From Bacteroidota bacterium (GTDB lineage: Bacteria; Bacteroidota; Bacteroidia; Cytophagales; Cyclobacteriaceae): a stretch of DNA of 64,000 nt. Location: NCBI GenBank assembly GCA_039026865.1, contig JBCCLN010000001.1, positions 1,011 through 65,010 on the forward strand, read 5' to 3'. Below the pieces are notes generated by a model. It saw only the letters and a program-made list of their open reading frames with translations, was not told where the DNA came from and searched no databases. How positions within the stretch are numbered: the first letter of the stretch is position 1; every line of letters starts with the position of its first letter. The translations under genes were made by a program, and so were the position numbers. Positions 2 through 19,653 of the stretch are shown one piece after another.

Positions 2-1036
2 AATGAAAATGCAGCGGCTGTCAACGTCCATTTTGATGACTTTACGGTATATCACGGGAAAACGAATGTGGTATTTACATCTGACTACTATCCTTTCGGA
101 TATGGGTTTAATGAGTATAATAGAACTGCGAGCGTACCACAGAACTTTAGATTTAACAGCTTTGAACTAGATGAAAATACAGGCTGGTATGATTACTTAG
201 CTCGACAGTACGACCCACTAATTGGACGCTTCACAAGTGTTGATCCAGCGGCTGATCTAATGAGAAGACATTCACCTTATAACTATGCGTTTGACAATCC
301 GATCCGGTTCATTGATCCTGATGGAATGATGCCTGATGAGATAATAGATGGTTCTGCAGCTGGAGGTGGTTCTACCAGTAGAACTATCACTTCTGCGGGA
401 AATACAGACTACATTGATGAAGTTACAACCAGTACAACTACAACTAGATCAGTGGTTGATTCTTCAGATCCAGACTATCAAGCTGCATTAGAGCAAAGTG
501 GCATTGATCCATCTAATTTAAGTGGTGAAGCATGGGTAACTCAAACCACCACAACCACTACAACATCTGGAACAGTTTTAGAATATGATGACAGTGGTAA
601 CTTGATTAGTGAAAACACTACTGATTTTACTTTGACAGAGTCTCAAAAAAGTGTTACATTCAAGGATACGAATGGTGGAGATGGAGGTGGAGCTATAATT
701 AATAAAGAGGCAAATGTAACTTATGATCAAAATGCTAGTCCTTCTGATGCTGTTTCAGCGAAAATAAATGATGCGGTTAGTTATAGGTCTGCTAACGGTG
801 TATCTGTTACTAACGGGCAAGACAATGCATCCGCAATAGCAAGACAGCAAAATGCGATAAATAACATAGATAAATATTCTCCTGCTGCAGGTGCATTAGT
901 TTTAAGGTACGCAAGTCTAGGAAGTCTTGCATTTAGTGCCGCAACTTATGGCGTTACAAAATCATTAGAAAGAGGATTGCAATTCTTAAAAAGCGACGGT
1001 GCTCCGTGCAATAACTGTACAAAAACATTCAAATGA
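2..1036 (+). CDS. Rhs repeat-associated core protein with variable C-terminal toxin domain (5' end lies outside the window)
   Basis: Frame is open from base 2 (NENAAAVNVHFDDFTVYHG...). It carries Rhs core motifs SDYYPFG, WYDYLARQYDPLIGRFTSVDP and PYNYAFDNPIRFIDPDGM, followed by a ~235 aa unrecognised C-terminal region. Confidence 0.9.
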   Translation, partial: NENAAAVNVHFDDFTVYHGKTNVVFTSDYYPFGYGFNEYNRTASVPQNFRFNSFELDENTGWYDYLARQYDPLIGRFTSVDPAADLMRRHSPYNYAFDNPIRFIDPDGMMPDEIIDGSAAGGGSTSRTITSAGNTDYIDEVTTSTTTTRSVVDSSDPDYQAALEQSGIDPSNLSGEAWVTQTTTTTTTSGTVLEYDDSGNLISENTTDFTLTESQKSVTFKDTNGGDGGGAIINKEANVTYDQNASPSDAVSAKINDAVSYRSANGVSVTNGQDNASAIARQQNAINNIDKYSPAAGALVLRYASLGSLAFSAATYGVTKSLERGLQFLKSDGAPCNNCTKTFK

Positions 1037-1449
1037 CACTTAAGCTGAGAAGGAACATATTGTCCTACTTATCATATGCGGTATTGATATCACTCTTTTG
1101 TAATGCTATTACCAAGATCAACTTTGAATCACTCGAGATAATAGATTTCGTAAACATTTTTGGATTAGTATTCATTTTTGCATCCTTAATATGGATTTTG
1201 ATTCATCATAATTTTATAGTCATTGACCATAAACAGATTACTATTTACAAGGATTTTTTTAGAATTACGAGAATTGCGATTGCGGATATTGATAAAGTCG
1301 AAGAATCAGTAGGCATTGTTTCAAATACCAACTTTCATTTAAAGAATGGTAAAAAGGAAAAGTTTACCAACTCAAATTTGAAAAGCAAAGATTTGGTTGC
1401 AATGGCTGATTTTTTATCAAAAATGAAAGTAATCAATGTTGAAAGTTAA
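1033..1449 (+). CDS. Putative immunity protein (two N-terminal TM helices plus small soluble PH-like domain)
   Basis: Overlaps the Rhs stop by 4 nt (ATGA); two hydrophobic stretches. Position is typical of cognate immunity genes. Confidence 0.65.
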   Translation: MTLKLRRNILSYLSYAVLISLFCNAITKINFESLEIIDFVNIFGLVFIFASLIWILIHHNFIVIDHKQITIYKDFFRITRIAIADIDKVEESVGIVSNTNFHLKNGKKEKFTNSNLKSKDLVAMADFLSKMKVINVES

Positions 1450-1936
1450 GATTATCTGTTTAATCTTTTTAACCCCAATCTTAGGGGTTTGTCAAAAGTC
1501 TTTCAATAGTCCTGACTATTCATTTAAAAGCCCATCAGACTTCACTTTCAGCAGAGATAATTTTATAGATGGGTTTGTGGATATATTGACCGTGATTGAC
1601 GATGATTCGACTGAAAATGTCAAGTACCTAATTTATTTGCATAAAATAAATATTGGATCAAAAATAGATGCCAGTTACTTAGTTGAGAATCCAACTCAAT
1701 ATACATCTGATCTTAATTGTACTGTTTTGACGAGCAAAGGAGTGTCCTATAATGGATATGATGGATTAGAACTCGAAGTAAAATTTGATAATTCCGATGA
1801 AGTTGTTGGGTATGTTTTTATGACTGCATACAACTCTACTCTTCGAAGAATAATATTTATGGTTCCTAATGAAGAATACTACGAGAAATACTTTTCAGAT
1901 ATTCAAAGCACCTTAAATAATCTGGAATTGAAATAG
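1436..1936 (+). CDS. Exported hypothetical protein (signal peptide), possible second immunity or accessory protein
   Basis: N-terminal hydrophobic signal-like segment; overlaps the previous gene. Confidence 0.55.
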   Translation: MLKVKIICLIFLTPILGVCQKSFNSPDYSFKSPSDFTFSRDNFIDGFVDILTVIDDDSTENVKYLIYLHKINIGSKIDASYLVENPTQYTSDLNCTVLTSKGVSYNGYDGLELEVKFDNSDEVVGYVFMTAYNSTLRRIIFMVPNEEYYEKYFSDIQSTLNNLELK

Positions 1937-1950
1937 ATATTACTAAGACT

Positions 1951-1984
1951 AAAACCCCAATCGGTTCATCTGATTGGGGTTTTA
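1951..1984. terminator. Intrinsic terminator, potentially bidirectional
   Basis: AAAACCCCAATC-ggttcatct-GATTGGGGTTTT(T): 12-bp stem with A/T runs on both sides, 15 nt after the stop at 1936. Confidence 0.85.
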
Positions 1985-2165
1985 TTATCCTCAATATCTA
2001 CCGCTTGTGTAAATCCTATTTCTCCATTTTTCTACTCTTTCCCCCCTTCCTTCTTTCCCTTCCAGTGGTCTAGCCCCCTATTAATCGGACTTTATAAAAT
2101 TGGATATTACTAAACTACCATTTTTGATTGAATTTTATAATCGCAAAGGACGACTAATGGTGATC

Positions 2166-2583
2166 TGTAATAGCCACTATTTAATCTGACAACAGGATTA
2201 ACGGACACTTAGAAAAGTACAATTTCCAGAATCTTGTACGATAAGACTGTCAGTTCATCCAACTCAACCTCAATAGCTAAATTAATCTTACGATCCTTCA
2301 CACCCAAATCATCCTAAAAAATCTCCACCCTATGGGTAGTATTTTTCAGGTTCCCAATTTGTGTGCTTGAATCTTTAGATTAAAAGAGCATTGTTGTTAG
2401 TTTCCCGCGAAAAAAATCGTGCTATTTTTTCGGGCAGCATTTTCACTTTGGCTAAATGCTTGTTGTCTAAGAATGTCCTCATAGGGGTTTTTCCAAAACA
2501 GTATTTTCCTTGATGCGTTCGATTGAGGTTGTATTCATCAATCCACTTATCAAGGTCTTTTTGTAGCTCCTCAAGGCTGTTCT
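2166..2583 (-). mobile_element. IS481-family remnant (transposase C-terminus and probable right end)
   Basis: Minus-strand peptide SLEELQKDLDKWIDEYNLNRTHQGKYCFGKTPMRTFLD matches IS481 transposase C-termini. The minus strand ends in TGTCAGATTAAATAGTGGCTATTACA (2191-2166), resembling IS481 ...TACA ends as I recall them. Confidence 0.7.
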
Positions 2584-3029
2584 TAAATGGTGAAGATGTT
2601 GTTGCAGGAGCAGTTGTAGATATCACAGTTGCAACAGGTGGAGCAGGAGGTGTTCTAATTGCTGCGGCTGCGGCTGGTGGGGCTCTTGGATCGGCAGCTG
2701 GTGATGTCACTGGCCAAGTAACCGAAAACCTCATAGATGGTCAAAGTGTTGGAGATGCTGTTACTAATGTTAGTTTTGAAAATACTGGAAAAAAAGCTTG
2801 GTCAGCAATGTCTAAAAATATTACAACTACTGCAACTACACTTAATAAAATGGGAGCAAGTGCTTCTACAACCCAGGGCGCAGTAGATAATATTACAAAA
2901 GGAATGGGTGAAGTGGGTAAAAATACCGTCAATAATGTTGCGAAAGCCTCGGCAGCAGCTACGGTAGTAACAGAAGGGGCTGTTAAAACCACTGAAATAG
3001 TTCAATCAGAACTAGATAAGCAACAATGA
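2584..3029 (+). pseudogene. Orphan, 5'-truncated Rhs-type toxin C-terminal module (Gly/Ala-rich, hydrophobic)
   Basis: The ORF-track start at 2523 lies inside IS481 sequence. From ~2584 the frame reads GEDVVAGAVVDITVATGGAGGVLIAAAAAGGALGSAAGD, typical of polymorphic toxin tips. It overlaps the next gene (ATGA). Confidence 0.65.
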
Positions 3030-3490
3030 GAAGAGTAATAAGAGTTGGTTTAATATTAAACTATCTTTTTTGGGGTGGGATGTTTGCCTATGCTTTTGCT
3101 CTTTTTGTAGCTTATAACGGTATTTTTGAGGTTTTTGAGTTTAACTGTAAGTATGCTGATGAGTTTAGTGTCTCTTTAAAAGAGAATAAGAAGAGCTATT
3201 ATGTTAGATATTCTTACATTGATAACTCAAAGATTTTTTCAAACAAAGAAGGTATCTCCAAGGACATTTATGATCAGCAAATTGGAGATGTTGAGAATCT
3301 TGAAATTTGCTACAATAGAACTTTTCCTACTCTCAGCTATCTCAAAGGAAAGAATCTGGCACTCAGAAGAAGTAAAGTTGGAATGGTAGTTTCATCTATA
3401 TTTTTGACCCTATTTGTCTTGATTGATTTGTTCTCCGATAAAGAAAAGTGGGCGAACAGGTACGAAAAGGTTTTTGGAATACAGAAATGA
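3026..3490 (+). CDS. Putative immunity protein (TM - soluble domain - TM, DUF3592-like architecture)
   Basis: Two terminal hydrophobic helices; coupled to the orphan toxin stop. Confidence 0.6.
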   Translation: MRRVIRVGLILNYLFWGGMFAYAFALFVAYNGIFEVFEFNCKYADEFSVSLKENKKSYYVRYSYIDNSKIFSNKEGISKDIYDQQIGDVENLEICYNRTFPTLSYLKGKNLALRRSKVGMVVSSIFLTLFVLIDLFSDKEKWANRYEKVFGIQK

Positions 3491-3521
3491 TCAAGACCCT
3501 GCTACAGCAAATGTACGGTGC

Positions 3522-3630
3522 TATTCCAATACTTCTTATGGTCTCAAGTTTATCGATTTCCTTAAATACGCTTTCCAAACCAATTCTTCCGGGATCTGCT
3601 TTCAGCTCATGCAAAGTAACCGCTTTATTG
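3522..3630 (-). pseudogene. Tn3-family transposase fragment
   Basis: Peptide TLHELKADPGRIGLESVFKEIDKLETIRSIGI matches the LKADPG..GLES...EI.KL..IR.IG segment of Tn3 TnpA. It has an in-frame stop upstream and is truncated downstream. Confidence 0.65.
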
Positions 3631-3938
3631 AATCAATCTCTTAAGTAGTGTCTGTAAGAAAAGGATGAAAAGTGATTTTTTCACCTTAAGAGGCCCGAAT
3701 TTATGCTGTTGTTGGACCTGAATCTAAATCAAGAAAACATACCGTCCCCAAAAGTGTGTCCCCAAAAATATGGAAATAAGGTTTCCCACAGGATAACTTC
3801 ATGATTAATGACAACAGGGTCAATCGCCGTAAGTGAACGACTAGTTGGGAGATTCCGAGAAAGACCACCGACTATGCAGGAAACTTTATCTATGAAATGA
3901 AACAAAAGTTTAGCAGAACGGAGTTCATTAATTAACAT

Positions 3939-4076
3939 ATGAAAAATTGGCTAAGTGATTTTGTAAGTCTGTTTATTGGGGTACCAAAAGACAAAGAAGC
4001 TCATAATTGGATAACAATTCTTTCTACTCTTATTTTTGTAGCTCTCATCTGCACCGTTTTTTCCATGGTATTTTAA
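3939..4076 (+). CDS. Possible small membrane protein (45 aa)
   Basis: ATG at 3939 to TAA at 4076: MKNWLSDFVSLFIGVPKDKEAHNWITILSTLIFVALICTVFSMVF. Below the ORF-track cutoff; C-terminal TM helix. Confidence 0.3.
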   Translation: MKNWLSDFVSLFIGVPKDKEAHNWITILSTLIFVALICTVFSMVF

Positions 4077-9728: not shown

Positions 9729-10087
9729 ATGGAGTTAACCCCATTTTATAGAGGCAAGTTGAAATATAAGTACATCGGAAAAAGAATTGATTATACCTCA
9801 GTTCGTAACTTCATATTAGATTCTGATTTAACTGATGGTTGTGGATCTTTGATGAAGAATTGTTTCCTTTTCAAAGTCAGGAATTCCGCAACCATTCTCC
9901 TGATGGATTCTCCTGGGGATACGGCGGATCTGGACCGGCACAACTAGCACTGGCTATCTGCGTGGAATTGTTTGGCGAAGACCTAGCTTTAAACGTTTAT
10001 CAGTCTTTTAAATCTAAGTATATTGCTATTTTACCTAAGACCGATTTTGAATGTGATTTGGTTGTTAATTTGAATGAATTGAAATAA
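9729..10087 (+). pseudogene. DUF6166-like protein split by a one-base frameshift near 9838 (or a sequencing error)
   Basis: The second frame has RNHSPDGFSWGYGGSGPAQLALAI. The first frame starts at 9729 after AAGGAG. Adding one base at ggttgtgg joins them. Confidence 0.6.
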
Positions 10088-10373: not shown

Positions 10374-11780
10374 TCAGTAATCCCAGGCTCCTGCTCCAGT
10401 ATCAGCCACCACCCAATCAGACCGTAGCTTACCATTGCTGGCAAGCTTTCGTGAGATAGAAGGGTCTTTGGTCAATTTAGAATAACATTTCAATGTGTGC
10501 ATAGTGTCGTCATAGTTCTTTATCCTGAAAGCTGGTACATGGTCTGGTGCAATACGTTGATGAATACAATAAAGAGCAATATGAACCATGCACCTTATCA
10601 AGTTCTTGTTCCTGGGGTCTGTTGTTTCCTTGAATTCAATCTTATTGTTCTCGAAAGTTGCAGCGTTTACATACATGACAGTTTCCCCCGGCAATTGATA
10701 ATTAACGCCTTCATATGCTACATACGCGCCGGCAGCATATGAAACTGTTTCATCATACGCTTCAACGGTTACCGCTTTCCAATTCGCTGATGCCTCGTCA
10801 GGCGCAATACCTGCTTGGATATTCAATAACCCAAAAAGCTCATAGAATGCATCATTATAGCTAACAATCAATCCAACATTAGATGCGGAATAATCAAAAC
10901 CTGGGTCAAACGTATTAAAAGCCACTTGATTCCAAAACTGCGTCAAGCCTGGAAAGAAATGCAACCTACCCTTTGGGTTTATCTCCATTTTAGATAGATA
11001 GAATTCATTGTTGAATCTCACATAGTCGGTAGGCTTAAAAAAGGCGCCCACAGCAAATTCGAAGAATTGCTTAGGCTGCCATGCACCAGACACATATTCA
11101 ACCAGTGTAAAGTCATTGGTATCGACACCTAGATCACCACTCACAGGAGCAACTATTGTTGTGAAGTCTACCAGGTTTTGATTTATCCAAGGATTAAAGA
11201 AAGGTTGAACCACCTCATTAATGAGGTCACCATTCTCCTTAGCGCATTCGTACCACCCCCCTTTATATTTTACGATATCCGTTGGCTCATAATTACCGTC
11301 CTGGCTGTAGACCTTAGTAGACACTAAGATCCAAAACATATCATTCGGAACAGACTGACCCGAGCTGGCCACGTAGCCCTCATAGCGGAGCTGATAGAGC
11401 GCGTTATCGTATTCCACGTAATCACCAACAGAATAAGATGTTTTCAGCGGATCAAAGACTTCATCTGCAAGCTCATTCCAGTAAGTTTCATATCCGGGTT
11501 TTCTGGCCGGATTCAAATAACCTTGTACCTGATAGAGCTTATCGTTTACCCAAACATTGTCACCCTTTAGAGTTTCTTTTTGCACGCTAAAGTCCCTGGT
11601 ATCCAGACCAATCTGGAAAGCGGCTTCTACCTCATACTCATTTGTCAGATATGAGATGATTTCTTCCTTGGCGTCTTCCTCAGAATCAATAATAATTTGG
11701 TTATTGCCTGCGATTAATTGATCAAAATGTTTTTGCTGTATGAAACGGTAATAGTCTGAGTTTCTTAAAAATCGTACCAT
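10374..11780 (-). CDS. Head-tail connector (Mu gp36/DUF1320-like) with a large inserted array of CBM5/12-like repeats
   Basis: The N-terminus (SEEDAKEEIISYLTNEYEVEAAF) and C-terminus (DPRNKNLIRCMVHIALYCIHQRIAPDHVPAFRIKNYDD) resemble gp36-like adaptors; about six aromatic repeats lie between them. It follows terL. Confidence 0.65.
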   Translation of the reverse strand: MVRFLRNSDYYRFIQQKHFDQLIAGNNQIIIDSEEDAKEEIISYLTNEYEVEAAFQIGLDTRDFSVQKETLKGDNVWVNDKLYQVQGYLNPARKPGYETYWNELADEVFDPLKTSYSVGDYVEYDNALYQLRYEGYVASSGQSVPNDMFWILVSTKVYSQDGNYEPTDIVKYKGGWYECAKENGDLINEVVQPFFNPWINQNLVDFTTIVAPVSGDLGVDTNDFTLVEYVSGAWQPKQFFEFAVGAFFKPTDYVRFNNEFYLSKMEINPKGRLHFFPGLTQFWNQVAFNTFDPGFDYSASNVGLIVSYNDAFYELFGLLNIQAGIAPDEASANWKAVTVEAYDETVSYAAGAYVAYEGVNYQLPGETVMYVNAATFENNKIEFKETTDPRNKNLIRCMVHIALYCIHQRIAPDHVPAFRIKNYDDTMHTLKCYSKLTKDPSISRKLASNGKLRSDWVVADTGAGAWDY

Positions 11781-13219
11781 TAGTATGAATGTGAGTTATG
11801 TCTGACAAAAGAAGTGGAAACGGTAGTACCGGCCCTCCCCCCTTTCTTGAATTTATACCAACTATATTTGAGCACTTCGCACAGGAAATAATCCATAGCG
11901 TCAGAAAGGTGATGGTGTTTTTCATACCTTACACCTGTTTTATCGTCTTTTACTTTGCTTTTATCCTTACCTCCGTCTTCATCGCTCAACCCATAGAGCA
12001 GATCTTCAGTGAGCTTCCTGCACTTCATATCTATAAGTATTTTCCAGCCATCCAGATTCTCCGCAAAAATTTCATTAATCCAGTCTCCTCTTAGTTTTAC
12101 TGGAGGAGCCGCCCTGGATACGCGCAATTGAGCCCGGCCACCAAGTTTACCCCCAAACACACGCAATACGATATGAAAGTCATTATGGCCTTGTAAACTC
12201 CTGGTATCTTCTTTACGCCCTGAAGGGTCACCATAGATGAAGACGCCTCCCTTATGGCTTAGAAAGCGCATGACAATAGCCTCAGCCGTAGCGGCGGTTT
12301 TATTACTTTTGGGTGGCCTTCCTAACACCTCTTCAAAAATATAGATTTTTTTATTTTTAGAGTCCACTTGCGCAACCAGGCTGGATAGGTATGGGTATAC
12401 GTTAAAGTCAAAAGCAATGTGCAAAGGCTTATTGCGATCATAGTATTTAGACTTGAGCCCGGTTACTAGGTGAGAGCCGCCATCAAAACCAGAATAGAAA
12501 GCAGCCTCATTGCTCGTTACGTAATTCCAGTTTCCGTAGAATAACCTCTCTCTCATTTCTGTATCTCGCAACCTTTCTAGGTTACTTATATAAACTTTTT
12601 TAAATGCCTCATCGGGATTATCATAAACATTAAAGGGGATATATGCCTCATCAGGAGGTAAATCGATAGGATTACCTTCGTCATCTTGTACAAACCGGGA
12701 ACGGACCCAATTGATCGTGGGGTTTGTAGACATTAAAAGCTTAGGTATCAGCCCATATTCTGCTACTTTCCATCGTATACGGGAACGTAATACCTCTACT
12801 GCCCGCTCAGCGATCTCCGAAACCTCATCTATAAAAGCTCCTGTATACTCTGAAGACCCAAATCGTTCATAATTGGGGTCTGAAGGAGTGGTCGCAAATT
12901 CTTTTAATATAATCTTGGAACCATTGTCAAACGTGATGTCAAGATTAATCTGATTGTAGTTGTAGGGTATTTCCCATTTCTTCAAAAGAGAAAGGATAGT
13001 ATTAAGCGTTGATTCTTTTAGATTTTTTAATGTCTTACGACCAACTACCCATCTCGTGTCATCATAGCGCATGCTCTGTATAATTAACCAAGCAGATCCA
13101 AGGTAGGACTTCCCCCCACCCGCAGCCCCACCGGCAAGGATTAATTCATGTACCCCGTCTTCAAGCACACACCACAACTTATATTGCCGCTCACTGGGTT
13201 TGAAATCAATCCGCTTCAC
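11780..13219 (-). CDS. terL: Terminase large subunit
   Basis: Walker A GGAAGGGKS, Walker B FIDEVSE, STNP motif, nuclease IAFDFN, YGDPSG and HLSDAMDY. Confidence 0.95.
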   Translation of the reverse strand: MKRIDFKPSERQYKLWCVLEDGVHELILAGGAAGGGKSYLGSAWLIIQSMRYDDTRWVVGRKTLKNLKESTLNTILSLLKKWEIPYNYNQINLDITFDNGSKIILKEFATTPSDPNYERFGSSEYTGAFIDEVSEIAERAVEVLRSRIRWKVAEYGLIPKLLMSTNPTINWVRSRFVQDDEGNPIDLPPDEAYIPFNVYDNPDEAFKKVYISNLERLRDTEMRERLFYGNWNYVTSNEAAFYSGFDGGSHLVTGLKSKYYDRNKPLHIAFDFNVYPYLSSLVAQVDSKNKKIYIFEEVLGRPPKSNKTAATAEAIVMRFLSHKGGVFIYGDPSGRKEDTRSLQGHNDFHIVLRVFGGKLGGRAQLRVSRAAPPVKLRGDWINEIFAENLDGWKILIDMKCRKLTEDLLYGLSDEDGGKDKSKVKDDKTGVRYEKHHHLSDAMDYFLCEVLKYSWYKFKKGGRAGTTVSTSFVRHNSHSY

Positions 13220-13808
13220 AGTTGGTCTTCACCCTATTACATACCAAAACTCCTCTTTTTACCGCTTCAATTACTTGATTAAACGGAAACCCTCCCCCCG
13301 GATCTTTCTTACCCTTATTTTTCCCTCTTACATCATCCCCTGACACGTCGGAATGACGTACGATATTTTCAACAGGTATATTAAATCTTCTGCGCCAATC
13401 AACACATTTTTGAATACAAGTCTGAATAACTGCTTTAGAATAGGAAGCAGGATCTTTCATTTTCTGTAAAAAAGTACCATAATCATTGCATCCGGCTATT
13501 AATATCTCTATCCCTAAATAATGATTATTTAAATTCTTCAAATCGTCATGTATACTCTCTCCGGCATGCAGAGCTTTTTCGGTTTCATCTACATTTCCGC
13601 CTATCCAGGATGCTTCGGGGCTAATAAATCCATGAGCAGACAACCCGAGAATAGCTAACCATTCACAGGCATGAATATTCTCAGGATATTTATTAATTTC
13701 TTGCTCTTTTTTGCCATACCATTTCAACGCACCCCGATGGATATATTCGCTCATCGCATGCAGTACAATACCTTTTGGCTGTATCAACTCCCTCATTTCT
13801 TGATACAT
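13206..13808 (-). CDS. N-acetylmuramoyl-L-alanine amidase (Amidase_2-type endolysin)
   Basis: IVLHAM, SAHGFI, ALHAGES, LGIEI, RHSDVS...KDPG. Confidence 0.88.
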   Translation of the reverse strand: MYQEMRELIQPKGIVLHAMSEYIHRGALKWYGKKEQEINKYPENIHACEWLAILGLSAHGFISPEASWIGGNVDETEKALHAGESIHDDLKNLNNHYLGIEILIAGCNDYGTFLQKMKDPASYSKAVIQTCIQKCVDWRRRFNIPVENIVRHSDVSGDDVRGKNKGKKDPGGGFPFNQVIEAVKRGVLVCNRVKTNCEAD

Positions 13809-14023
13809 TAGTAGAGAAGTATAGGAAATTTTTGTTAGTGAAGTTTTTGTTAAAAATTCGAGTATACATTAGATTTGAGTTAAGTATAGTAAAGAACTTT
13901 AGAAAAGATATGGAATTAAGTATATCACATCTGGAAAGAAGTAAATTGGGGAACCTGGGAAGAATTTTATGTATGCTTTTTAACCAATGTGAAAGGAAGA
14001 GTCACCTAGGGTTAATTAAGTAA

Positions 14024-14953
14024 ATGAGCAAAGGAATAAACAGCCCTTTCAGATACGCTGGAGGTAAATTCTACGCGAGAAAGTTAATTCTTAATCATAT
14101 ACCACCCCATACATCATATGTTGAACCGTTTGCAGGTAGTGGTAGTATATTTTTTGCCAAGAAAAAGGTGGAATTTAACCACTTGAATGATTTAGATGAA
14201 GAGCTTGTTAATGTATACAATACAATTAAAGATAATCCTGAAGGGCTAATTGATTTTTTAACCAAACAACCTTTTCATGATGATTCATTGCCGGAAGGTA
14301 AAGTAATAAATGTCGCAAATGGAAGCCCGCTTCCTGCACTTAAAGAATTGCATACGTTTTTCAAGAAGGTGTACACTCCCACTACCCTTCTAGAACAAGC
14401 TGGTCGTTGGTATTACTTAAACAGAACCTCATATAGTGGTATCATGAATTACCAGAATATGTATTGGGGCTATGGAGATAAATTTTCTATGCAACCTAGA
14501 AACTGGCCCGCAAATATTAGAAGAGCAAGTGAAAAGTTGCAGAATGTCGAAATTACCTCTTTAGATTTTGAGGAAGTAATTGATAATGCTCCCGATGGTA
14601 ATTTATTATTTATCGATCCGCCCTATTTTAATACGGATCAAGATAAGTTTTACACACATTCTTTTAACCATAATGACCATCAAAGGCTCCTGGAATGTGT
14701 TGAACGCAATAATGAGAGATTATTCATTTTCATAACTTATGACAACACCCCTGAAATAAGAGAAATGTATAGTTGGATGACCGAAATGCACGATCAGGAG
14801 TGGAATTACTCTATTCAAAGAACAGACAACCAAAAAAATAATTTGGATATTAAAGGCAGCAGGTACAAAGGCAAAGAATTATTCATACTAAACTATAAAA
14901 GAGAAAACCTTGAATTGGTTAAACAAGGAGTTCAATTACGTCTCGAGGTTTGA
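14024..14953 (+). CDS. Orphan DNA adenine methyltransferase (Dam/D12 class), antisense to the phage genes
   Basis: PFRYAGGK, YVEPFAGSGS, NDLDEEL, FIDPPY. Confidence 0.92.
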   Translation: MSKGINSPFRYAGGKFYARKLILNHIPPHTSYVEPFAGSGSIFFAKKKVEFNHLNDLDEELVNVYNTIKDNPEGLIDFLTKQPFHDDSLPEGKVINVANGSPLPALKELHTFFKKVYTPTTLLEQAGRWYYLNRTSYSGIMNYQNMYWGYGDKFSMQPRNWPANIRRASEKLQNVEITSLDFEEVIDNAPDGNLLFIDPPYFNTDQDKFYTHSFNHNDHQRLLECVERNNERLFIFITYDNTPEIREMYSWMTEMHDQEWNYSIQRTDNQKNNLDIKGSRYKGKELFILNYKRENLELVKQGVQLRLEV

Positions 14954-15150: not shown

Positions 15151-15807
15151 TTATTCATCATTTTCTTCTTCAAATTCTACGTCTTCAGCATCCGGTGTGA
15201 TATCTAAAGGCTCTTGACCTGGTACCACAATGTTAAACTGGAAACCCCTACCGGCCTCATGAGTCACTTTCGCTTCTGCTGGTTTGTTATACCCCAACAT
15301 CTTATTTAGTACTTCAACAGCTCTAATCGAAGCCATCCGCTGTTGGTGAGTGGCCACAGCAGTTCCGGTTCCTTCCTTAACTCTGCCCTCCTCGTCTACT
15401 TCCTGATCTTTCCGGGTGATGATATTAGCCATTTCATCTCGCACCTTTATCAAAGTTTCAATATTGGAAAATCGAATATGCTCGTAGGCGTCAAGCCGAT
15501 CCTGCTGTAACTCTTTGATGTAAGCCTTTACATTAGGCCTTTTTACCATCTCATTAGCTCGCGTATACGTTTTTTCTGTCTTCTCGCCTTTACTATAAAC
15601 TACGGCATAGCAATCGGCTTTTTTACCCATCAGCTGAGGATCAAAGACGTATAAATGACAAAATTGTTCCTGATCACCGTTTAATGGCTTCTCTTCAGGA
15701 TGTTGCTCGTAATAGGCTCTTTGCTCAGCTTGCTTGACTTGCCCCATTTTCTGGATCTTTCGCATGTGCTCAGACCTATCAAACTTTTCAACCCGACTCG
15801 TACCCAA
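15151..15807 (-). CDS. terS: Terminase small subunit
   Basis: QEQFCHLY...AVVYS...RANEMVKRPNVKAYIKEL pattern, RIRAVEVLNKMLG-like segment, acidic tail; upstream of terL. Confidence 0.75.
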   Translation of the reverse strand: MGTSRVEKFDRSEHMRKIQKMGQVKQAEQRAYYEQHPEEKPLNGDQEQFCHLYVFDPQLMGKKADCYAVVYSKGEKTEKTYTRANEMVKRPNVKAYIKELQQDRLDAYEHIRFSNIETLIKVRDEMANIITRKDQEVDEEGRVKEGTGTAVATHQQRMASIRAVEVLNKMLGYNKPAEAKVTHEAGRGFQFNIVVPGQEPLDITPDAEDVEFEEENDE

Positions 15808-15820
15808 AATATAAAAAAAA

Positions 15821-16360
15821 TTATTTCTTACCCCTCTTTGTAGAACCTAGTGAACTCCCAAGATAGAAGCCGGTAACCTGTTTTCGCTCATCCAGCAGCG
15901 AGGTGACCACAGAGGACACAATAGCCACCACCGGAACTAGGCCCTGAAGTACGGTCGCTTGCATATCATTTGGTACGAATAAAATGATTCCCAAATTAAG
16001 AAATGCTACGAATAAAACCAGTATAAGTACATAAGGAATATTCACCTTAAAGATCTTCTTGGAGATCTCATCTGTGGTGTCTTTACTTTTATCGTACATC
16101 TTAGACGCGCGTAAACGACTTTGCTCTTCCAACTCGAAAGCTTCAAAATCTAAAGCATTTAATTGATTTGCCTCTGTAAGAAGCGCATTCCCTGTTTCTC
16201 CGGTTAGCTCAGAAGCAAGCTTATCTTTAAGCTTACCAAAAATAGCCCCTCCTGGATTAGGGGAAACCATTACATCTATCACATCCCCAACCAGATCTGG
16301 TAACCTCTGTGTTACTTTCTGTAGGAATTTACCAACCTTTGTTTTCCTCCCCTTTGTCAT
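15821..16360 (-). CDS. Holin-like membrane protein
   Basis: Two C-terminal TM helices ending in VTGFYLGSSLGS and a basic tail, as in 3TM-holin-like proteins. Confidence 0.65.
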   Translation of the reverse strand: MTKGRKTKVGKFLQKVTQRLPDLVGDVIDVMVSPNPGGAIFGKLKDKLASELTGETGNALLTEANQLNALDFEAFELEEQSRLRASKMYDKSKDTTDEISKKIFKVNIPYVLILVLFVAFLNLGIILFVPNDMQATVLQGLVPVVAIVSSVVTSLLDERKQVTGFYLGSSLGSTKRGKK

Positions 16361-16362
16361 AA

Positions 16363-16638
16363 TTATTTCCCTTTGTATACGTTTAAAATTTCATCCAGTA
16401 CCCCCTTTATGTCTTGCCTCAGACCCCTGATTTCTTGTTTAATTTCTACCAAAGCTTTGTTTTCGATATCAAGAACACGCTTTTCTAGGTTGTTTATCTT
16501 TAAACGATATTCTAGGCGTTTTTCTATCTCTTCTTTGGAATCTTTATGGATACTTCTTTTATACCCTAGATAAGAAATTACACTCGCTTCAAGTGCAATC
16601 AATACCGAACCAATTGCAATAATGGTAGTCAGCTCCAT
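16363..16638 (-). CDS. Single-TM coiled-coil protein (holin/antiholin-like)
   Basis: N-terminal hydrophobic helix followed by a charged heptad region; 2 nt from the next gene. Confidence 0.55.
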   Translation of the reverse strand: MELTTIIAIGSVLIALEASVISYLGYKRSIHKDSKEEIEKRLEYRLKINNLEKRVLDIENKALVEIKQEIRGLRQDIKGVLDEILNVYKGK

Positions 16639-16646
16639 GTCGGTTT

Positions 16647-17120
16647 TTAATCTTTATACTTGTTTCTAATGTTTTCAAGTTTCGATACCAGCTTTTTTGT
16701 TCTGTCAGGGTCTTGAATTTTTAGGTTATCCAAAGCCTCTTTTAATAAATTTTCCTGGTTTTTTTGAAAAGTAATATCATGTCTAATCGAGATATATTCT
16801 TCTATATTACAATTCTCATCCCTCATAGGTGTAATAGTCGTCTGAACACAATAAAATGATCCGTTTTTCGCTCTGTTCCATATACTACCTTCCCACACCT
16901 TTCCACCGGATATTGTTCGCCACATGTTATCGTAAAAATCATGCCTATGAAGCCCGCTTTTCAGTATCCTGTGATTCCGTCCTATTAGTTCGTCTGCACT
17001 ATATCCAGAGATTTCGCAAAATTTGGGATTCACAAAATTGATTATCCCCTTAATATCTGTCACGGAAACCAATGCTGAGTTATCTAAGGCATTAAATATG
17101 TTTCTACATTGATTATCCAT
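16647..17120 (-). CDS. Stand-alone PAS/PAC sensor protein (NifL/Aer-like, probably flavin-binding)
   Basis: VSVTDIKGIINFVNPKFCEISGYSADELIGRNHRIL...FYDNMWRTISGGKVWEGSIWNRAKNGSFYCVQTTITP...YISIRHDIT, then a ~40 aa helical tail. No output domain. Confidence 0.92.
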   Translation of the reverse strand: MDNQCRNIFNALDNSALVSVTDIKGIINFVNPKFCEISGYSADELIGRNHRILKSGLHRHDFYDNMWRTISGGKVWEGSIWNRAKNGSFYCVQTTITPMRDENCNIEEYISIRHDITFQKNQENLLKEALDNLKIQDPDRTKKLVSKLENIRNKYKD

Positions 17121-17312
17121 AAATTCATTGTAGAAATATCAATTTAAATATCTCAAACTTAAGTGCAGACCCTTCCTTACTGAACCGTATAACCATTAAT
17201 GCTCCGAAATAAGTTTTTGGGGCGCAGGGTTAACTATCTTACGTATAGCCTGCCATTCCCCACCTAATTTAAATCATCCTTTCAGAGTATAGGAAATATG
17301 ATTTAATTAGGT

Positions 17313-17618
17313 TTATCCTGGCTTATCTTGTTCTCTAGGTCCATTTTGATCTTCTTCAATTGATTTAGCATTAGCGTACCCAATCATCTGATCTAGAATC
17401 ATTTCCTCAAAGGCGCCCGCCAACTGACCAGCCAAATTTTGCACCTGCTTCCTGTTCTTAATCAGGGCTTGATTAAAATCGATTTTGATATCGTAGCCTG
17501 ACAGTGTGCCGATGACCTGTCCGCTATTAGTTACCTGCAAAGCTAATCGGTCATTTTCTTTGAAAGTAACCTGGCTTACTTCTCCTCCAGCCATTTGATC
17601 TACATCGTTATTTGCCAT
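17313..17618 (-). CDS. Hypothetical protein
   Basis: Co-oriented 101 aa ORF. Confidence 0.65.
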   Translation of the reverse strand: MANNDVDQMAGGEVSQVTFKENDRLALQVTNSGQVIGTLSGYDIKIDFNQALIKNRKQVQNLAGQLAGAFEEMILDQMIGYANAKSIEEDQNGPREQDKPG

Positions 17619-18640: not shown

Positions 18641-19324
18641 TTATTTATCCGATATGACTTCCAATATCCAACAAGCAATAGCATAAACTATTTCTTCTGC
18701 CTCTCCTACCAATTCTTGCTGAGTACAATCTAACTTTGTTTTATGTTGGTTCTTGGTGCGGTAAAATGCACCCACTATACCTTTTCCAGGATTTTTACGA
18801 TACACCTTATATACTTCTTCATATTGTTTAAAAAGCCCAACTGCACAATTTTCACCTTTTTTCAATCCGGGCTTTGATCTACACACAGTCTCGGCAATAA
18901 TAGTTTTAACACAGTCTTTTACATGCTTCTGTGTAGTTAATATATTGGATATTTTTTGCTTTTCTGTTAAATTTTTTGAACATACATAGTTATCAAAGCA
19001 GTCTTTAATTTTCTTAAACATATTAATGTATTCAATACAGTGATTTAGCGTCATATCATACTCAAACATAGGAGATTTTTTAATTGCAAGTTCACAAATC
19101 AATGATTGGTCAATACGTACTAACAATTCATATAAATAATCATTTACCTGAATAAACCAATCATTTAGCATTATTTGATTATATTCTATTTGATACATAA
19201 ATGTCGTCTCCGGAGGGACAGATATTCGATCGCTTAGACAAACCGCATCAAGTAAATTGTTAACAATTACGTGAATGGGTAGTTGACTTTTTTTTGTAAA
19301 AAGTTTTTGTAAAAAATTAACCAT
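18641..19324 (-). CDS. Hypothetical protein in an AT-rich insert (moron-like)
   Basis: 227 aa with Cys/Ile/Lys-rich composition; the DNA is visibly more AT-rich than neighbouring genes. Confidence 0.6.
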   Translation of the reverse strand: MVNFLQKLFTKKSQLPIHVIVNNLLDAVCLSDRISVPPETTFMYQIEYNQIMLNDWFIQVNDYLYELLVRIDQSLICELAIKKSPMFEYDMTLNHCIEYINMFKKIKDCFDNYVCSKNLTEKQKISNILTTQKHVKDCVKTIIAETVCRSKPGLKKGENCAVGLFKQYEEVYKVYRKNPGKGIVGAFYRTKNQHKTKLDCTQQELVGEAEEIVYAIACWILEVISDK

Positions 19325-19491: not shown

Positions 19492-19653
19492 CTATGTCGG
19501 CTCCATCACCACTACCCCATTTACCTCCCCCATTCGCTGGGGTCTGGTGGTGACTGAGATGTCCAAGATAAAACATTCGGCAGTCAGAAAATCACGCATG
19601 TATTCTTTACCAGATGCAGCCTTGCCTGCTAGTATAATTCTACATTTTCTCAC
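19492..19653 (-). pseudogene. Truncated guanylate kinase-like gene (not in the ORF track)
   Basis: GTG at 19653: MRKCRIILAGKAASGKEYMRDFLTAECFILDISVTTRPQRMGEVNGVVVMEPT*. It has a P-loop and the S.TTRP.R.GE..G motif of guanylate kinases, and stops after 53 aa. Confidence 0.75.

Follow-up and report, generated by a model that had tools for sequence, protein, structure and literature searches.

What is a stand-alone sensor domain doing at the head of a phage's late genes? The question is posed by the window analyzed here, a stretch of 64,000 nucleotides in which the gene for a short PAS protein comes first in a tight row of minus-strand genes that ends in terS. The source of the PAS gene is a marine Bacteroidota phage; the phage measures ~79–104 kb and carries a replication module with a PolIII-alpha-type polymerase, a primase, and a helicase. 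The sequence was found in marine metagenome DNA runs only, with no RNA run containing it, and a 7.7-kb megablast search of GenBank phages returned no match.

One answer can be envisioned in which a sensor captured from a PAS kinase, now an accessory gene heading a late unit, gates the timing of the holin by redox through the membrane proteins of the lysis apparatus. We hold this reading tentatively, as quite possible yet short of probable. Several other roles for the gene are conceivable, and each draws on a different part of the evidence.

Architecture of the late unit

Along the minus strand, the PAS gene (16647–17120; 157 aa) is followed by an ORF of 91 aa (16363–16638), an ORF of 179 aa (15821–16360), and, as the final gene of the unit, terS (15151–15807; 218 aa, with a TTG start). 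The gaps between them are 8, 2, and 13 nt; the ORFs and the close spacing that the sequence-only reading had described were both reproduced. The next late unit is made up of an amidase endolysin (Amidase_2, 200 aa; 13206–13825, minus strand) and TerL (11780–13219), the start of which is overlapped by the endolysin gene. The endolysin matches Pfam Amidase_2 (4e-12) and the PHROG endolysin families, and terS matches phrog_51 (1.4e-10) and Pfam Terminase_2 (3.1e-4, under that model's cut-off). Identity of terS is 24% to the terS of BS-TP1, and 73% and 58% to the orthologs in two related contigs, L002 and L038. BS-TP1 gp130, which at 157 aa has the length of the PAS protein, was considered as a misannotated PAS and rejected as a true terS homolog. 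Accessory genes have been inserted nearby: a D12 methyltransferase gene lies on the opposite strand, and a 227-aa ORF near the PAS unit stands where most of a guanylate kinase is replaced.

A late-promoter-like element (17286–17313, minus strand) precedes the unit and overlaps the stop codon of a 101-aa gene. Its core, CCTATACT at 17286–17293, has on its upstream side a T-rich tract and, at ~20 nt, an AACCTA element. The earlier description of this site as a copy of a late-promoter-like motif holds up well, with 10 copies of CCTATACT in the window against 1.75 expected, a count reached by none of 100 shuffles. Seven of the eight minus-strand copies are intergenic. The genes behind the copies are those for portal/minor head, head protease, tape measure, and two tail-region genes, with other copies heading the PAS unit and, at 13818–13825, the unit of amidase and TerL; the replication module at 18–37 kb contains none. 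An extended pattern, consisting of AAC(C/T)TT, a T-rich tract, and CCTATACT, is common to copies in the window, L002, and L038, where such copies precede structural, lysis, and packaging genes. Scanning for sigma-70 promoters and terminators gave results at shuffle level, these models not being informative for Bacteroidota. Because of the short intergenic gaps and the distribution of the motif, the PAS-terS unit looks late and co-transcribed.

The distance from motif to start is 166 nt before the PAS ATG, versus 5–35 nt at the other copies, and this leader contains a conserved hairpin (17219–17261, minus strand) of the form GGGG..(G)CAGG - loop - CCTG(C)..CCCC. The unit begins with the motif and the hairpin in each of the three contigs, the hairpin lying at the same place between the motif and the first gene. 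In the hairpin alignment, 23 of 24 cells are paired, with 2 compensatory pairs, which 60 of 500 shuffles match. The whole leader folds no more stably than its shuffles (z 0.06), and Rfam gave no match over 15–18 kb. No T run comes after the hairpin, which is therefore not an intrinsic terminator.

Because the unit also encodes terS, the position of the PAS gene equally fits a role in packaging. In such a role the PAS protein would contact terS, the terminase, or another late protein and couple packaging or assembly to energy state. TerS lies in the same tight unit and TerL in the next, and the conserved leader hairpin is near terS, where pac-type or regulatory sites often lie; however, two membrane protein genes separate PAS from terS, and L038 packages without any PAS. 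We know of no precedent for redox-sensor control of packaging, and a regulator of packaging or another late process has only a slim chance of being the right explanation.

The PAS protein: class, relatives, and distribution

Pfam recognizes the PAS protein through PAS_9 (3.7e-17; 62.9 bits, cut-off 27), PAS (8.6e-15; 55.2 bits, cut-off 22.6), and PAS_3 (7.9e-14; 52.1 bits, cut-off 25.6), and TIGR00229 matches at 72.8 bits (cut-off 22.9). No domain besides PAS was found by Pfam, in agreement with the original view that an output domain is missing. The AF2 model (pLDDT 86.7, core above 90) has an N-cap helix at residues 3–15, a core at 17–115, and two tail helices at 117–136 and 138–156, which correspond to the helical tail of ~40 aa proposed from the letters. 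Strands at 17–22, 26–30, 76–83, 89–100, and 106–115 form a five-stranded antiparallel beta-sheet with flanking helices. Foldseek returned 625 PDB matches at E<=0.001; all 50 of the matches listed are PAS/LOV domains, the best being 3EWK (rmsd 1.0 Å, 117 columns, 44% identity). A match of the model in BFVD to T4-type holin T (E 0.1) was dropped, finding no support in PMC11413866.

The sequence also points to a cofactor. In a PDB sequence search, MmoS PAS-A (3EWK, 2.6e-42), Aer (8DIK, 3.2e-17), and NifL (2GJ3, 3.5e-14) outrank every LOV/FMN domain; the Foldseek ranking is similar, but with the MrLOVe chains 9vf7_A and 9vf7_C above 8DIK and 2GJ3. The flavin pocket of Aer and MmoS is formed by T18, G28, H53, R57, M69/W70, N85, and R115: H53 stacks on the isoalloxazine, R115 lies over N5, M69/W70 are on the adenine, and R57 is a basic residue to the phosphate, with N85, G28, and T18 also in the pocket (PMC9668731). 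Alignment to the PDB relatives gives S15, G25, H50, K54, M66/W67, N82, and R113 as the counterparts in the PAS protein, and the L002 ortholog is identical at all seven positions. Invariant pocket columns are G25, W67, and N82 in alignment A5 and H50, K54, M66, W67, N82, and R113 in A6. With FAD-binding MmoS, Aer, and NifL as its closest relatives and counterparts for the named pocket residues, the protein keeps the NifL/Aer-type assignment first given to it. From sequence and model, we are confident in placing it as a stand-alone, cytoplasmic member of the FAD-binding MmoS PAS-A/Aer/NifL PAS1 class, with flavin binding predicted. A LOV photoreceptor was ruled out: the adduct motif GXNCRFLQ is replaced by GRNHRILK in the window and by GRNHRIFK in L002, with His in place of the photoactive Cys. 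This replacement, together with an FAD pocket of the Aer/MmoS type, argues for a redox sensor rather than a blue-light sensor.

The closest cellular relatives are soluble PAS-histidine kinases of 365–378 aa from Flavobacteriaceae/Bacteroidota. To their N-terminal PAS plus linker the phage protein is 50–58% identical, with the alignment running from the N-cap into the signaling helix (linker DITFQKNQE in the phage versus DITKQKNQE in the kinase); the ~40-aa tail corresponds to the start of the histidine-kinase signaling helix. The ~180 cellular and viral relatives examined (the best 80 genomic, 80 metagenomic, and 21 IMG/VR homologs) are all embedded in multidomain sensors, and none outside this phage lineage is a stand-alone PAS. 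The stand-alone state is derived and, among these relatives, confined to this lineage. The 21 IMG/VR loci came from an alignment-based scan and all lie in multidomain proteins of 303–1526 aa, single-protein scans of IMG/VR with the PAS and with the 179-aa protein giving no match. Scanning metagenomes with the two phage PAS sequences yielded 80 loci, the best 52% identical, with no stand-alone or phage-like PAS among them. In phages, tblastn with the PAS found only the Aer cargo genes of P1/SJ46-type elements (34–36% identity). A wider pairing of PAS with lysis genes in other phages, a check that the sequence-only reading had proposed, did not emerge: neither GenBank nor IMG/VR gave another phage with a stand-alone PAS of the subfamily beside lysis genes, and the literature yielded no relevant report linking PAS to holins, to lysis timing, or to phages. 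Judged by its relatives, the phage PAS most likely began as the N-terminal sensor of a soluble PAS-histidine kinase of Bacteroidota, which was captured and cut short.

Because the protein resembles the truncated N-terminus of such a kinase, a host kinase is supported as an alternative target. A truncated PAS with its linker may heterodimerize with a host PAS-histidine kinase or another PAS protein and so block or rewire redox signaling, its place in the lysis/packaging unit then being incidental; such a decoy would act much as the small LOV protein VVD does in antagonizing the White Collar complex. The nearest Flavobacteriaceae/Bacteroidota relatives are indeed compact N-cap-PAS-DHp-CA kinases, at 50–58% identity, and the phage PAS keeps exactly the elements that mediate PAS-kinase dimerization; it is also accessory, self-promoted in L002, and lower in GC than the core genes. 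Yet that identity is the highest to any cellular PAS and is equal across many phyla, giving no hint of a specific host partner, and the change of a near-invariant YWV to YCV in both phage copies suggests an altered surface. The promoter, moreover, is of the late type shared with lysis and packaging genes, which is late for the manipulation of host transcriptional signaling. We regard decoy action as unlikely, yet as a serious rival to redox gating.

Among related phages, the window and one sister contig, L002, carry PAS (orthologs 68% identical), and the gene is precisely absent from the third relative, L038, which keeps the promoter, the leader hairpin, and the 95-aa, 184-aa, and terS genes. 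About 30 BS-TP1-like relatives are without the PAS, 91-aa, and 179-aa genes. Synteny, which the sequence-only reading had proposed as a check, is kept in part: the position of PAS is conserved in one other contig, but only in that one, and the L038 unit does without it. Since L038 keeps the whole unit, PAS is an optional add-on rather than integral to the lysis module, and the lysis proteins work in its absence. The L002 gene has an extra promoter copy of its own, and the GC content of PAS is below that of the core genes.

Comparison with the L002 ortholog gives a pN of 0.21, comparable to that of TerL and terS, and a pS of 0.90, values indicating that the PAS gene is under purifying selection. 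A decaying, functionless remnant of a captured host gene, which truncation relative to all cellular homologs and absence from L038 might suggest, is accordingly disfavored and very improbable: the frame is intact in two phages with saturated synonymous sites, pN is like that of TerL and terS, the cofactor-pocket residues are all conserved, and the fold is predicted with confidence. The same distribution could also reflect a moron unrelated to its neighbors, a general flavoprotein or an oxygen/ROS sensor with host targets that sits at a permissive site past a strong late promoter. The clean presence/absence polymorphism directly after the leader, the separate promoter copy in L002, the D12 methyltransferase and 227-aa ORF also inserted nearby, and the several short uncharacterized PAS proteins of uncultured phages in BFVD are consistent with this. 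An 8-nt gap to the next cistron is harder to reconcile with it, as is a position kept across a divergence with saturated synonymous sites, and the retention of the signaling-type residues H50, N82, and R113 argues for a sensor over a mere flavin carrier. On balance we consider an unrelated moron improbable.

Membrane proteins of the late region

By TM scan, the 91-aa and 179-aa proteins are the sole membrane proteins of the late region, and the amidase endolysin has no signal, SAR, or TM segment. With an amidase that has no export signal and only these two membrane proteins in the late region, a holin is needed.

The 179-aa protein has an N-terminal region of ~105 aa, TM segments at 111–129 and 137–155, and a basic C-tail ending ...GSTKRGKK. 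Its soluble N-terminal region (105 aa, predicted cytoplasmic) is unusually long for a holin. The protein belongs to phrog_1544, annotated "unknown function," a family of at least 157 cluster representatives of ~165–200 aa with the motif ER..V..F(F/Y)(F/L)GSS.GSK. Of 10 contexts outside this lineage, 6 have the family member directly after an endolysin gene, and these endolysins are of the M15/DD-peptidase (L004, L005, L006), GH108 (L225, L226), and CHAP (L227) classes; adjacency to endolysins of three enzyme classes is a holin-type signature for the family. No Pfam family reaches threshold on 60 phrog_1544 members, and NCBIfam gave no match to the 179-aa protein. The AF2 model is all-helical (pLDDT 70) and has no BFVD fold match below E 1; metagenome and genome scans with the 179-aa alignment gave no match. 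The holin-like label survives in part: two TM segments, a charged tail, and a family adjoining endolysins agree with it, but the protein falls in no named holin family. By the association of its family with endolysins, the 179-aa protein behaves like one of holin type. In the window, the amidase gene lies ~2 kb downstream of the 179-aa gene, past terS and the inverted methyltransferase gene; in L038, only terS lies between the 184-aa gene and the amidase.

The 91-aa protein begins with an acidic N-terminus and a single TM segment (residues 3–21 in the TM scan), followed by the KR-rich YKRSIHKDSK. Its predicted topology is N-out/C-in, which would place its coiled coil in the cytoplasm, within reach of the PAS protein. 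It matches phrog_1863 at 8e-7. Pfam DUF2730 (PF10805) reaches 4.9e-5 with the L002 ortholog (23.8 bits, cut-off 24.9; collinear over 84 of 102 positions) and E 0.013 with the L038 ortholog, the window copy having no match. For phrog_736, the Mu gp25 family, which Mu gp25 itself matches at 5e-33, the values are 0.074 for the window copy, 8.8e-7 for L002, and 2.5e-4 for L038; hhalign of the 91-aa family against Mu gp25 alone gave a probability of 10%. A profile search of 5.8 billion proteins recovered three members, all already known, and tblastn against phages found nothing. Pfam, NCBIfam, and PADLOC assign neither the 91-aa nor the 179-aa protein to a named holin or defense family.

Releasins of the DUF2730 family have an N-terminal TMD with an N-out/C-in orientation and are encoded no more than 5 genes away from an endolysin (PMC9239132). 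Here the amidase is the fourth gene downstream of the 91-aa gene, within that range. The releasin Mu gp25 is likewise ~90–100 aa, with an N-terminal TM segment, predicted to run N-out/C-in, and a helical domain on the cytoplasmic side, and its gene also lies just upstream of the terminase genes. The settings differ: Mu gp25 comes from transposable Mu-like phage, in some cases with a SAR endolysin, whereas the phage here is not Mu-like and its endolysin, a soluble amidase, has no SAR domain. On these comparisons the 91-aa protein may be remotely DUF2730/releasin-like, the resemblance being weak.

A possible redox input to the timing of lysis

A PAS protein with no enzymatic or DNA-binding output must, we infer, signal through protein-protein contact, which could be made by the beta-sheet, the N-cap, or the tail helices. 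The most likely partners would be cytoplasmic parts of the lysis membrane proteins translated alongside it: the coiled coil of the 91-aa protein or the 105-aa N-terminal region of the 179-aa protein. The redox state of the flavin would report host respiration or oxygen, and the PAS protein, acting like a cytoplasmic antiholin or co-holin, would shift the trigger time of the holin. Such redox gating is plausible; the link to lysis comes from gene position and order in just two contigs. Further observations count against gating. In L002, PAS is self-promoted, like a self-contained moron, and its function need not relate to its neighbors; in this phage, moreover, the endolysin is not adjacent to the 179-aa gene. 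A more specific form, in which the flavin-PAS is a cofactor-based cytoplasmic regulator of the holin module and host respiratory or oxygen state, not holin concentration alone, sets the time of lysis, appears somewhat unlikely.

Known systems share parts of this arrangement. MmoS PAS-A, Aer, and NifL PAS1 form the N-terminal part of kinases, chemoreceptors, or anti-activators, whereas the phage PAS stands alone with a 40-aa tail, is phage-encoded, and lies in a late-gene unit. The midpoint potentials of MmoS and Aer are near -290 mV. In form it is closer to the short LOV proteins (PpSB1-LOV, PpSB2-LOV, PF5-LOV, and MrLOVe) and VVD, which share the N-cap, flavin PAS core, and C-terminal J-alpha-type helices; the short LOV proteins are likewise without an effector domain (Foldseek TM 0.70–0.76). 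The output of short LOV proteins and VVD is dimer rearrangement or partner binding.

Antiholins such as T4 RIII, T4 RI, lambda S107, and P1 LydB are regulators of lysis timing encoded in or beside lysis cassettes, and the known ones take superinfection or membrane potential as their signal rather than a bound redox cofactor. Like PAS in the present proposal, antiholins are small accessory proteins with holin-linked genes, dispensable for lysis, that shift timing by contact with a holin domain (for T4 RI, see PMC11413866). PAS has no sequence or fold relation to them, its role being read from position only. Another parallel comes from VqmA of vibriophage VP882, a PAS receptor that the phage encodes and that governs its switch to lysis. 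Both would be phage-borne PAS sensors tying a lysis decision to a signal, which for VqmA is a small molecule. VqmA, however, binds DPO, has a DNA-binding output, and acts on antirepressor transcription in a temperate phage; the PAS here is a flavin-type protein lacking any output domain.

Two further results do not depend on this proposal. Judged by its gene neighborhoods, the unnamed ~175-aa family phrog_1544 has the character of a holin family and could be given a name; and a late promoter motif with a conserved leader hairpin is now defined for an uncultured group of Bacteroidota phages. As for the sensor itself, no life-history trait of a lytic phage matters more than when it lyses the cell, and the holin clock is known to be set by holin dose and membrane potential, together with superinfection in lysis inhibition of the T-even, N4, and ICP1 type. 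If the proposal is true, host redox or oxygen state would be added to these inputs through a cofactor-bearing sensor, making the PAS protein the first of the antiholin-like proteins to take its input from a redox cofactor. Such control would be relevant in the ocean, where particle-attached Flavobacteriia face steep oxygen gradients.

Probable late transcription of the PAS unit

The window represents part of an uncultured marine phage, about 79 kb long and recovered from a metagenome. Its nearest sequenced relative is Bacteroides phage BS-TP1 (TerL identity only 46%), and it has no relative in GenBank at the nucleotide level. Its replication module (18-37 kb) encodes a PolIII-alpha-type polymerase, primase, helicase, SbcCD and exonuclease; myovirus-type structural genes (portal/minor head, head protease, sheath, tape measure, fibre) occupy 38-62 kb. 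On the minus strand, the exonuclease (18463-17738) and a 101 aa protein (17618-17313) are followed by a 192-nt intergenic leader and by the genes for PAS (17120-16647), for proteins of 91 aa (16638-16363) and 179 aa (16360-15821), and for terS (15807-15151); the amidase gene (13808-13206, minus) overlaps that of TerL (13219-11780, minus). The gaps of 8, 2 and 13 nt reported for the PAS-terS unit are exact.

Between terS and the amidase, a D12-class N6-adenine DNA methyltransferase gene (14024-14953, plus) splits the lysis/packaging genes and is an accessory insertion, since the two related contigs, L002 and L038, lack it at that place. At 19492-19653 and 18641-19324 (minus), the guanylate kinase gene appears truncated: only ~48 N-terminal residues match the orthologs (176 aa in L002, 169 aa in L038), and the place of the missing part is taken by an insertion-like 227 aa ORF of GC 0.31 with no family match. 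Outside both late and replication modules lies a cluster of small plus-strand ORFs (1033-4076; 138, 166, 154 and 45 aa) with predicted TM segments or signal-like N-termini.

The late-promoter-like motif that the sequence-only reading placed at 17286-17293 is indeed there, as the minus-strand 8-mer CCTATACT. It is reasonable to call it a putative late promoter because it is enriched (10 copies in the window against 1.75 expected), is absent from the replication module, is reused in extended form in L002 and L038, and stands ahead of structural, lysis and packaging genes: seven of its eight minus-strand copies are intergenic, just upstream of portal/minor-head, head protease, tape measure, two tail-region genes, the PAS unit and the amidase-TerL unit. 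The copies have in common a T-rich tract and an AAC(C/T)TT element ~20 nt upstream.

The copy serving the PAS unit is unusual in standing 166 nt from the PAS start, with a hairpin-bearing leader between. Comparison of the three phages places this G/C-rich hairpin (window 17261-17219, minus; L002 about 9788-9838; L038 about 3147-3189) directly after the motif heading the (PAS)-91-179-terS unit in all three, and its two compensatory pairs give suggestive support by covariation, from three sequences and short of significance. With no match in Rfam and no T run after it, the hairpin might serve RNA stability or regulation, or bind a protein near terS. It is strongly supported that PAS is made late and shares its transcript with the holin-type 179 aa protein, the 91 aa coiled-coil protein tethered to the membrane, and terS; a packaging role for PAS seems improbable.

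A flavin-type sensor domain and its ancestry

The protein had been read as a NifL/Aer-like flavin sensor lacking an output domain, which is correct as far as sequence can tell. PAS is the only domain found by Pfam and NCBIfam, and in the PDB the FAD-binding domains of MmoS (PAS-A, E 2.6e-42), Aer (3.2e-17) and NifL (PAS1, 3.5e-14) outrank all LOV/FMN domains. A confident AF2 model (pLDDT 86.7) places an N-cap helix before the PAS core and two helices in the tail, and superposes on MmoS PAS-A at 1.0 A. All the flavin-pocket and signalling residues named for Aer and MmoS (PMC9668731) have counterparts in alignments, kept in both phage copies: Aer T18, G28, H53, R57, M69/W70, N85 and R115 correspond to S15, G25, H50, K54, M66/W67, N82 and R113. 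Unlike LOV domains, the phage protein has His in place of the LOV cysteine, and is therefore not a photoreceptor. Its identity as a soluble, predicted flavin-type sensor without output domain is thus strongly supported. The near-invariant cellular beta-strand YWV reads YCV in the window (C91, codon about 16848-16850) and in L002, a phage-specific change that might mark an altered interaction surface.

The MmoS-type subtype is very common in cells, with more than 567 matches at 43-60% identity across many bacterial and archaeal phyla in a genome scan. In the best 80 of these the domain always sits within a protein of at least 339 aa (median 770 aa), it is likewise embedded in larger proteins in 80 metagenomic and 21 IMG/VR matches, and none of these three sets contains a stand-alone PAS similar to the phage copy. 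Among the IMG/VR contigs, L042-L056 encode 404-718 aa proteins with one or two MmoS-type PAS domains and a conserved kinase-like C-terminal half (KNTYLEHAAKILRHDMHSGINTY ... DNGRG ... GTGLGL); these may be sensor kinases borne by phages or may belong to host flanks. The closest Flavobacteriaceae/Bacteroidota relatives, soluble kinases of compact build (365-378 aa; N-cap/PAS/DHp/CA), are 50-58% identical from the N-cap into the signalling helix, with the junction DITKQKNQE where the phage has DITFQKNQE. The simplest history would be capture of the 5' part of a soluble PAS-kinase gene. The GC content of the phage gene (0.35) lies under the 0.41-0.43 of core neighbours, as does that of other accessory genes of the window.

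This ancestry, together with retained dimerisation elements, fits the main rival account of PAS function, in which the truncated sensor titrates a host PAS kinase; late expression does not fit, and we consider that account unlikely. A moron unrelated to its neighbours is comparably unlikely.

Membrane-protein neighbours and conservation of the unit

Apart from the 91 aa and 179 aa proteins, the late region encodes no membrane protein, and the amidase has no export signal and therefore requires a holin. The 179 aa protein (105 aa soluble N-terminal region, two TM helices, basic tail), earlier described as holin-like, belongs to phrog_1544, a family annotated as of unknown function with at least 157 cluster representatives in a profile search, a very uniform length of ~175 aa and a conserved C-terminal motif. 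Pfam, NCBIfam and fold searches gave no named match for the family; gene context speaks for the holin-like description. Adjacency to endolysins of varied enzyme class is the usual signature by which holins are recognised, and an endolysin directly precedes the phrog_1544 member in 6 of 10 contexts outside the window lineage, spanning three enzyme classes: M15/DD-peptidase in three Vibrio-phage lineages (L004-L006), GH108 or CHAP in three metagenomic contigs (L225-L227). By this context in unrelated phages, phrog_1544 is a candidate for a new family of holins. As in the window, the phrog_1544 member of prophage L143 is preceded by a TM plus coiled-coil protein.

The 91 aa protein, an N-terminal TM followed by a coiled coil, has a predicted N-out/C-in topology. 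Matches of its orthologs to DUF2730 and phrog_736 (Mu gp25 "releasin" family) lie near the threshold; the window's own copy gives none, and hhalign gives only a weak result for Mu gp25 by itself, so that we speak of resemblance to this family rather than assignment. Endolysin release requires Mu gp25, a cytoplasmic protein tethered to the membrane (PMC9239132), and the 91 aa protein is likewise predicted to be membrane-tethered with a cytoplasmic C-terminal part.

Only L002 and L038 carry the 91/179 pair besides the window. L002 (TerL 77% identical) has the window's gene order and PAS at 68% identity, with a further copy of the promoter 27 nt upstream of the start of PAS. L038 (TerL 67% identical) reads exonuclease, 107 aa, promoter, hairpin, 95 aa, 184 aa, terS, amidase, TerL; the arrangements with and without PAS part ways just after the common leader stretch ...AAAACTTA..TTTCGG. 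The pairing of PAS with a holin-type gene recurs in L002 and is missing from L038, and searches of phages, IMG/VR and metagenomes found no second lineage with the PAS-holin/terS layout. Since L038 keeps the unit without it, PAS is an optional first cistron. It is nevertheless maintained under selection: pN between window and L002 is 0.21 while pS is 0.90 (synonymous sites saturated), and TerL, the 179 aa protein and terS give values in the same range. That the gene is a dead remnant is thus highly improbable.

Near the corresponding region L038 has a Gad2-family (anti-Gabija) gene and a ThyX gene (11954-12559 and 1227-1895), both lacking there in the window. Some 30 BS-TP1-like relatives (TerL 41-48% identical) have the common backbone without the PAS, 91 aa and 179 aa genes. 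In BS-TP1 (2809-3417) and IMG/VR relatives L007-L030, terS and endolysin are separated by the gene for a 202 aa protein whose N-terminus carries a TM; the BS-TP1 copy (phrog_38864, unknown function) has no Pfam match and was labelled "GAF domain-containing" by its depositors from structure alignment. It may be another example of a sensor-type domain among the lysis/packaging genes of these phages.

Proposed contact signalling and lysis timing

Phages were already known to carry PAS sensors: for uncultured phages, BFVD lists PAS kinases and several short PAS proteins that are uncharacterised, and phage VP882 has the characterised PAS-HTH receptor VqmA, whereas the window protein has no output domain. 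Unusual here is an FAD-type domain without output, kept under selection as first cistron of a holin/terS late unit, of which literature searches found no description. The trio of PAS, 91 aa and 179 aa proteins has no similarity to known defence systems. Weighing on significance are the dispensability of PAS for the module, a layout known from only two contigs of an uncultured phage, and a credible rival target.

The observation made in the sequence-only reading is confirmed, and its interpretation as environmentally gated lysis is partly supported. Accessory holin regulators are typically optional and encoded within the lysis cassette. For that reason, because the genes are almost contiguous and co-regulated, and because redox or respiration is a sensible input for ending virion production, the cytoplasmic parts of the 91 aa and 179 aa lysis membrane proteins rank as the likeliest targets; that PAS would signal to them by contact is a tentative conclusion from position. 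Redox gating of lysis is, on this positional evidence, a good hypothesis, under which a redox or respiration signal would enter the decision to stop virion production.
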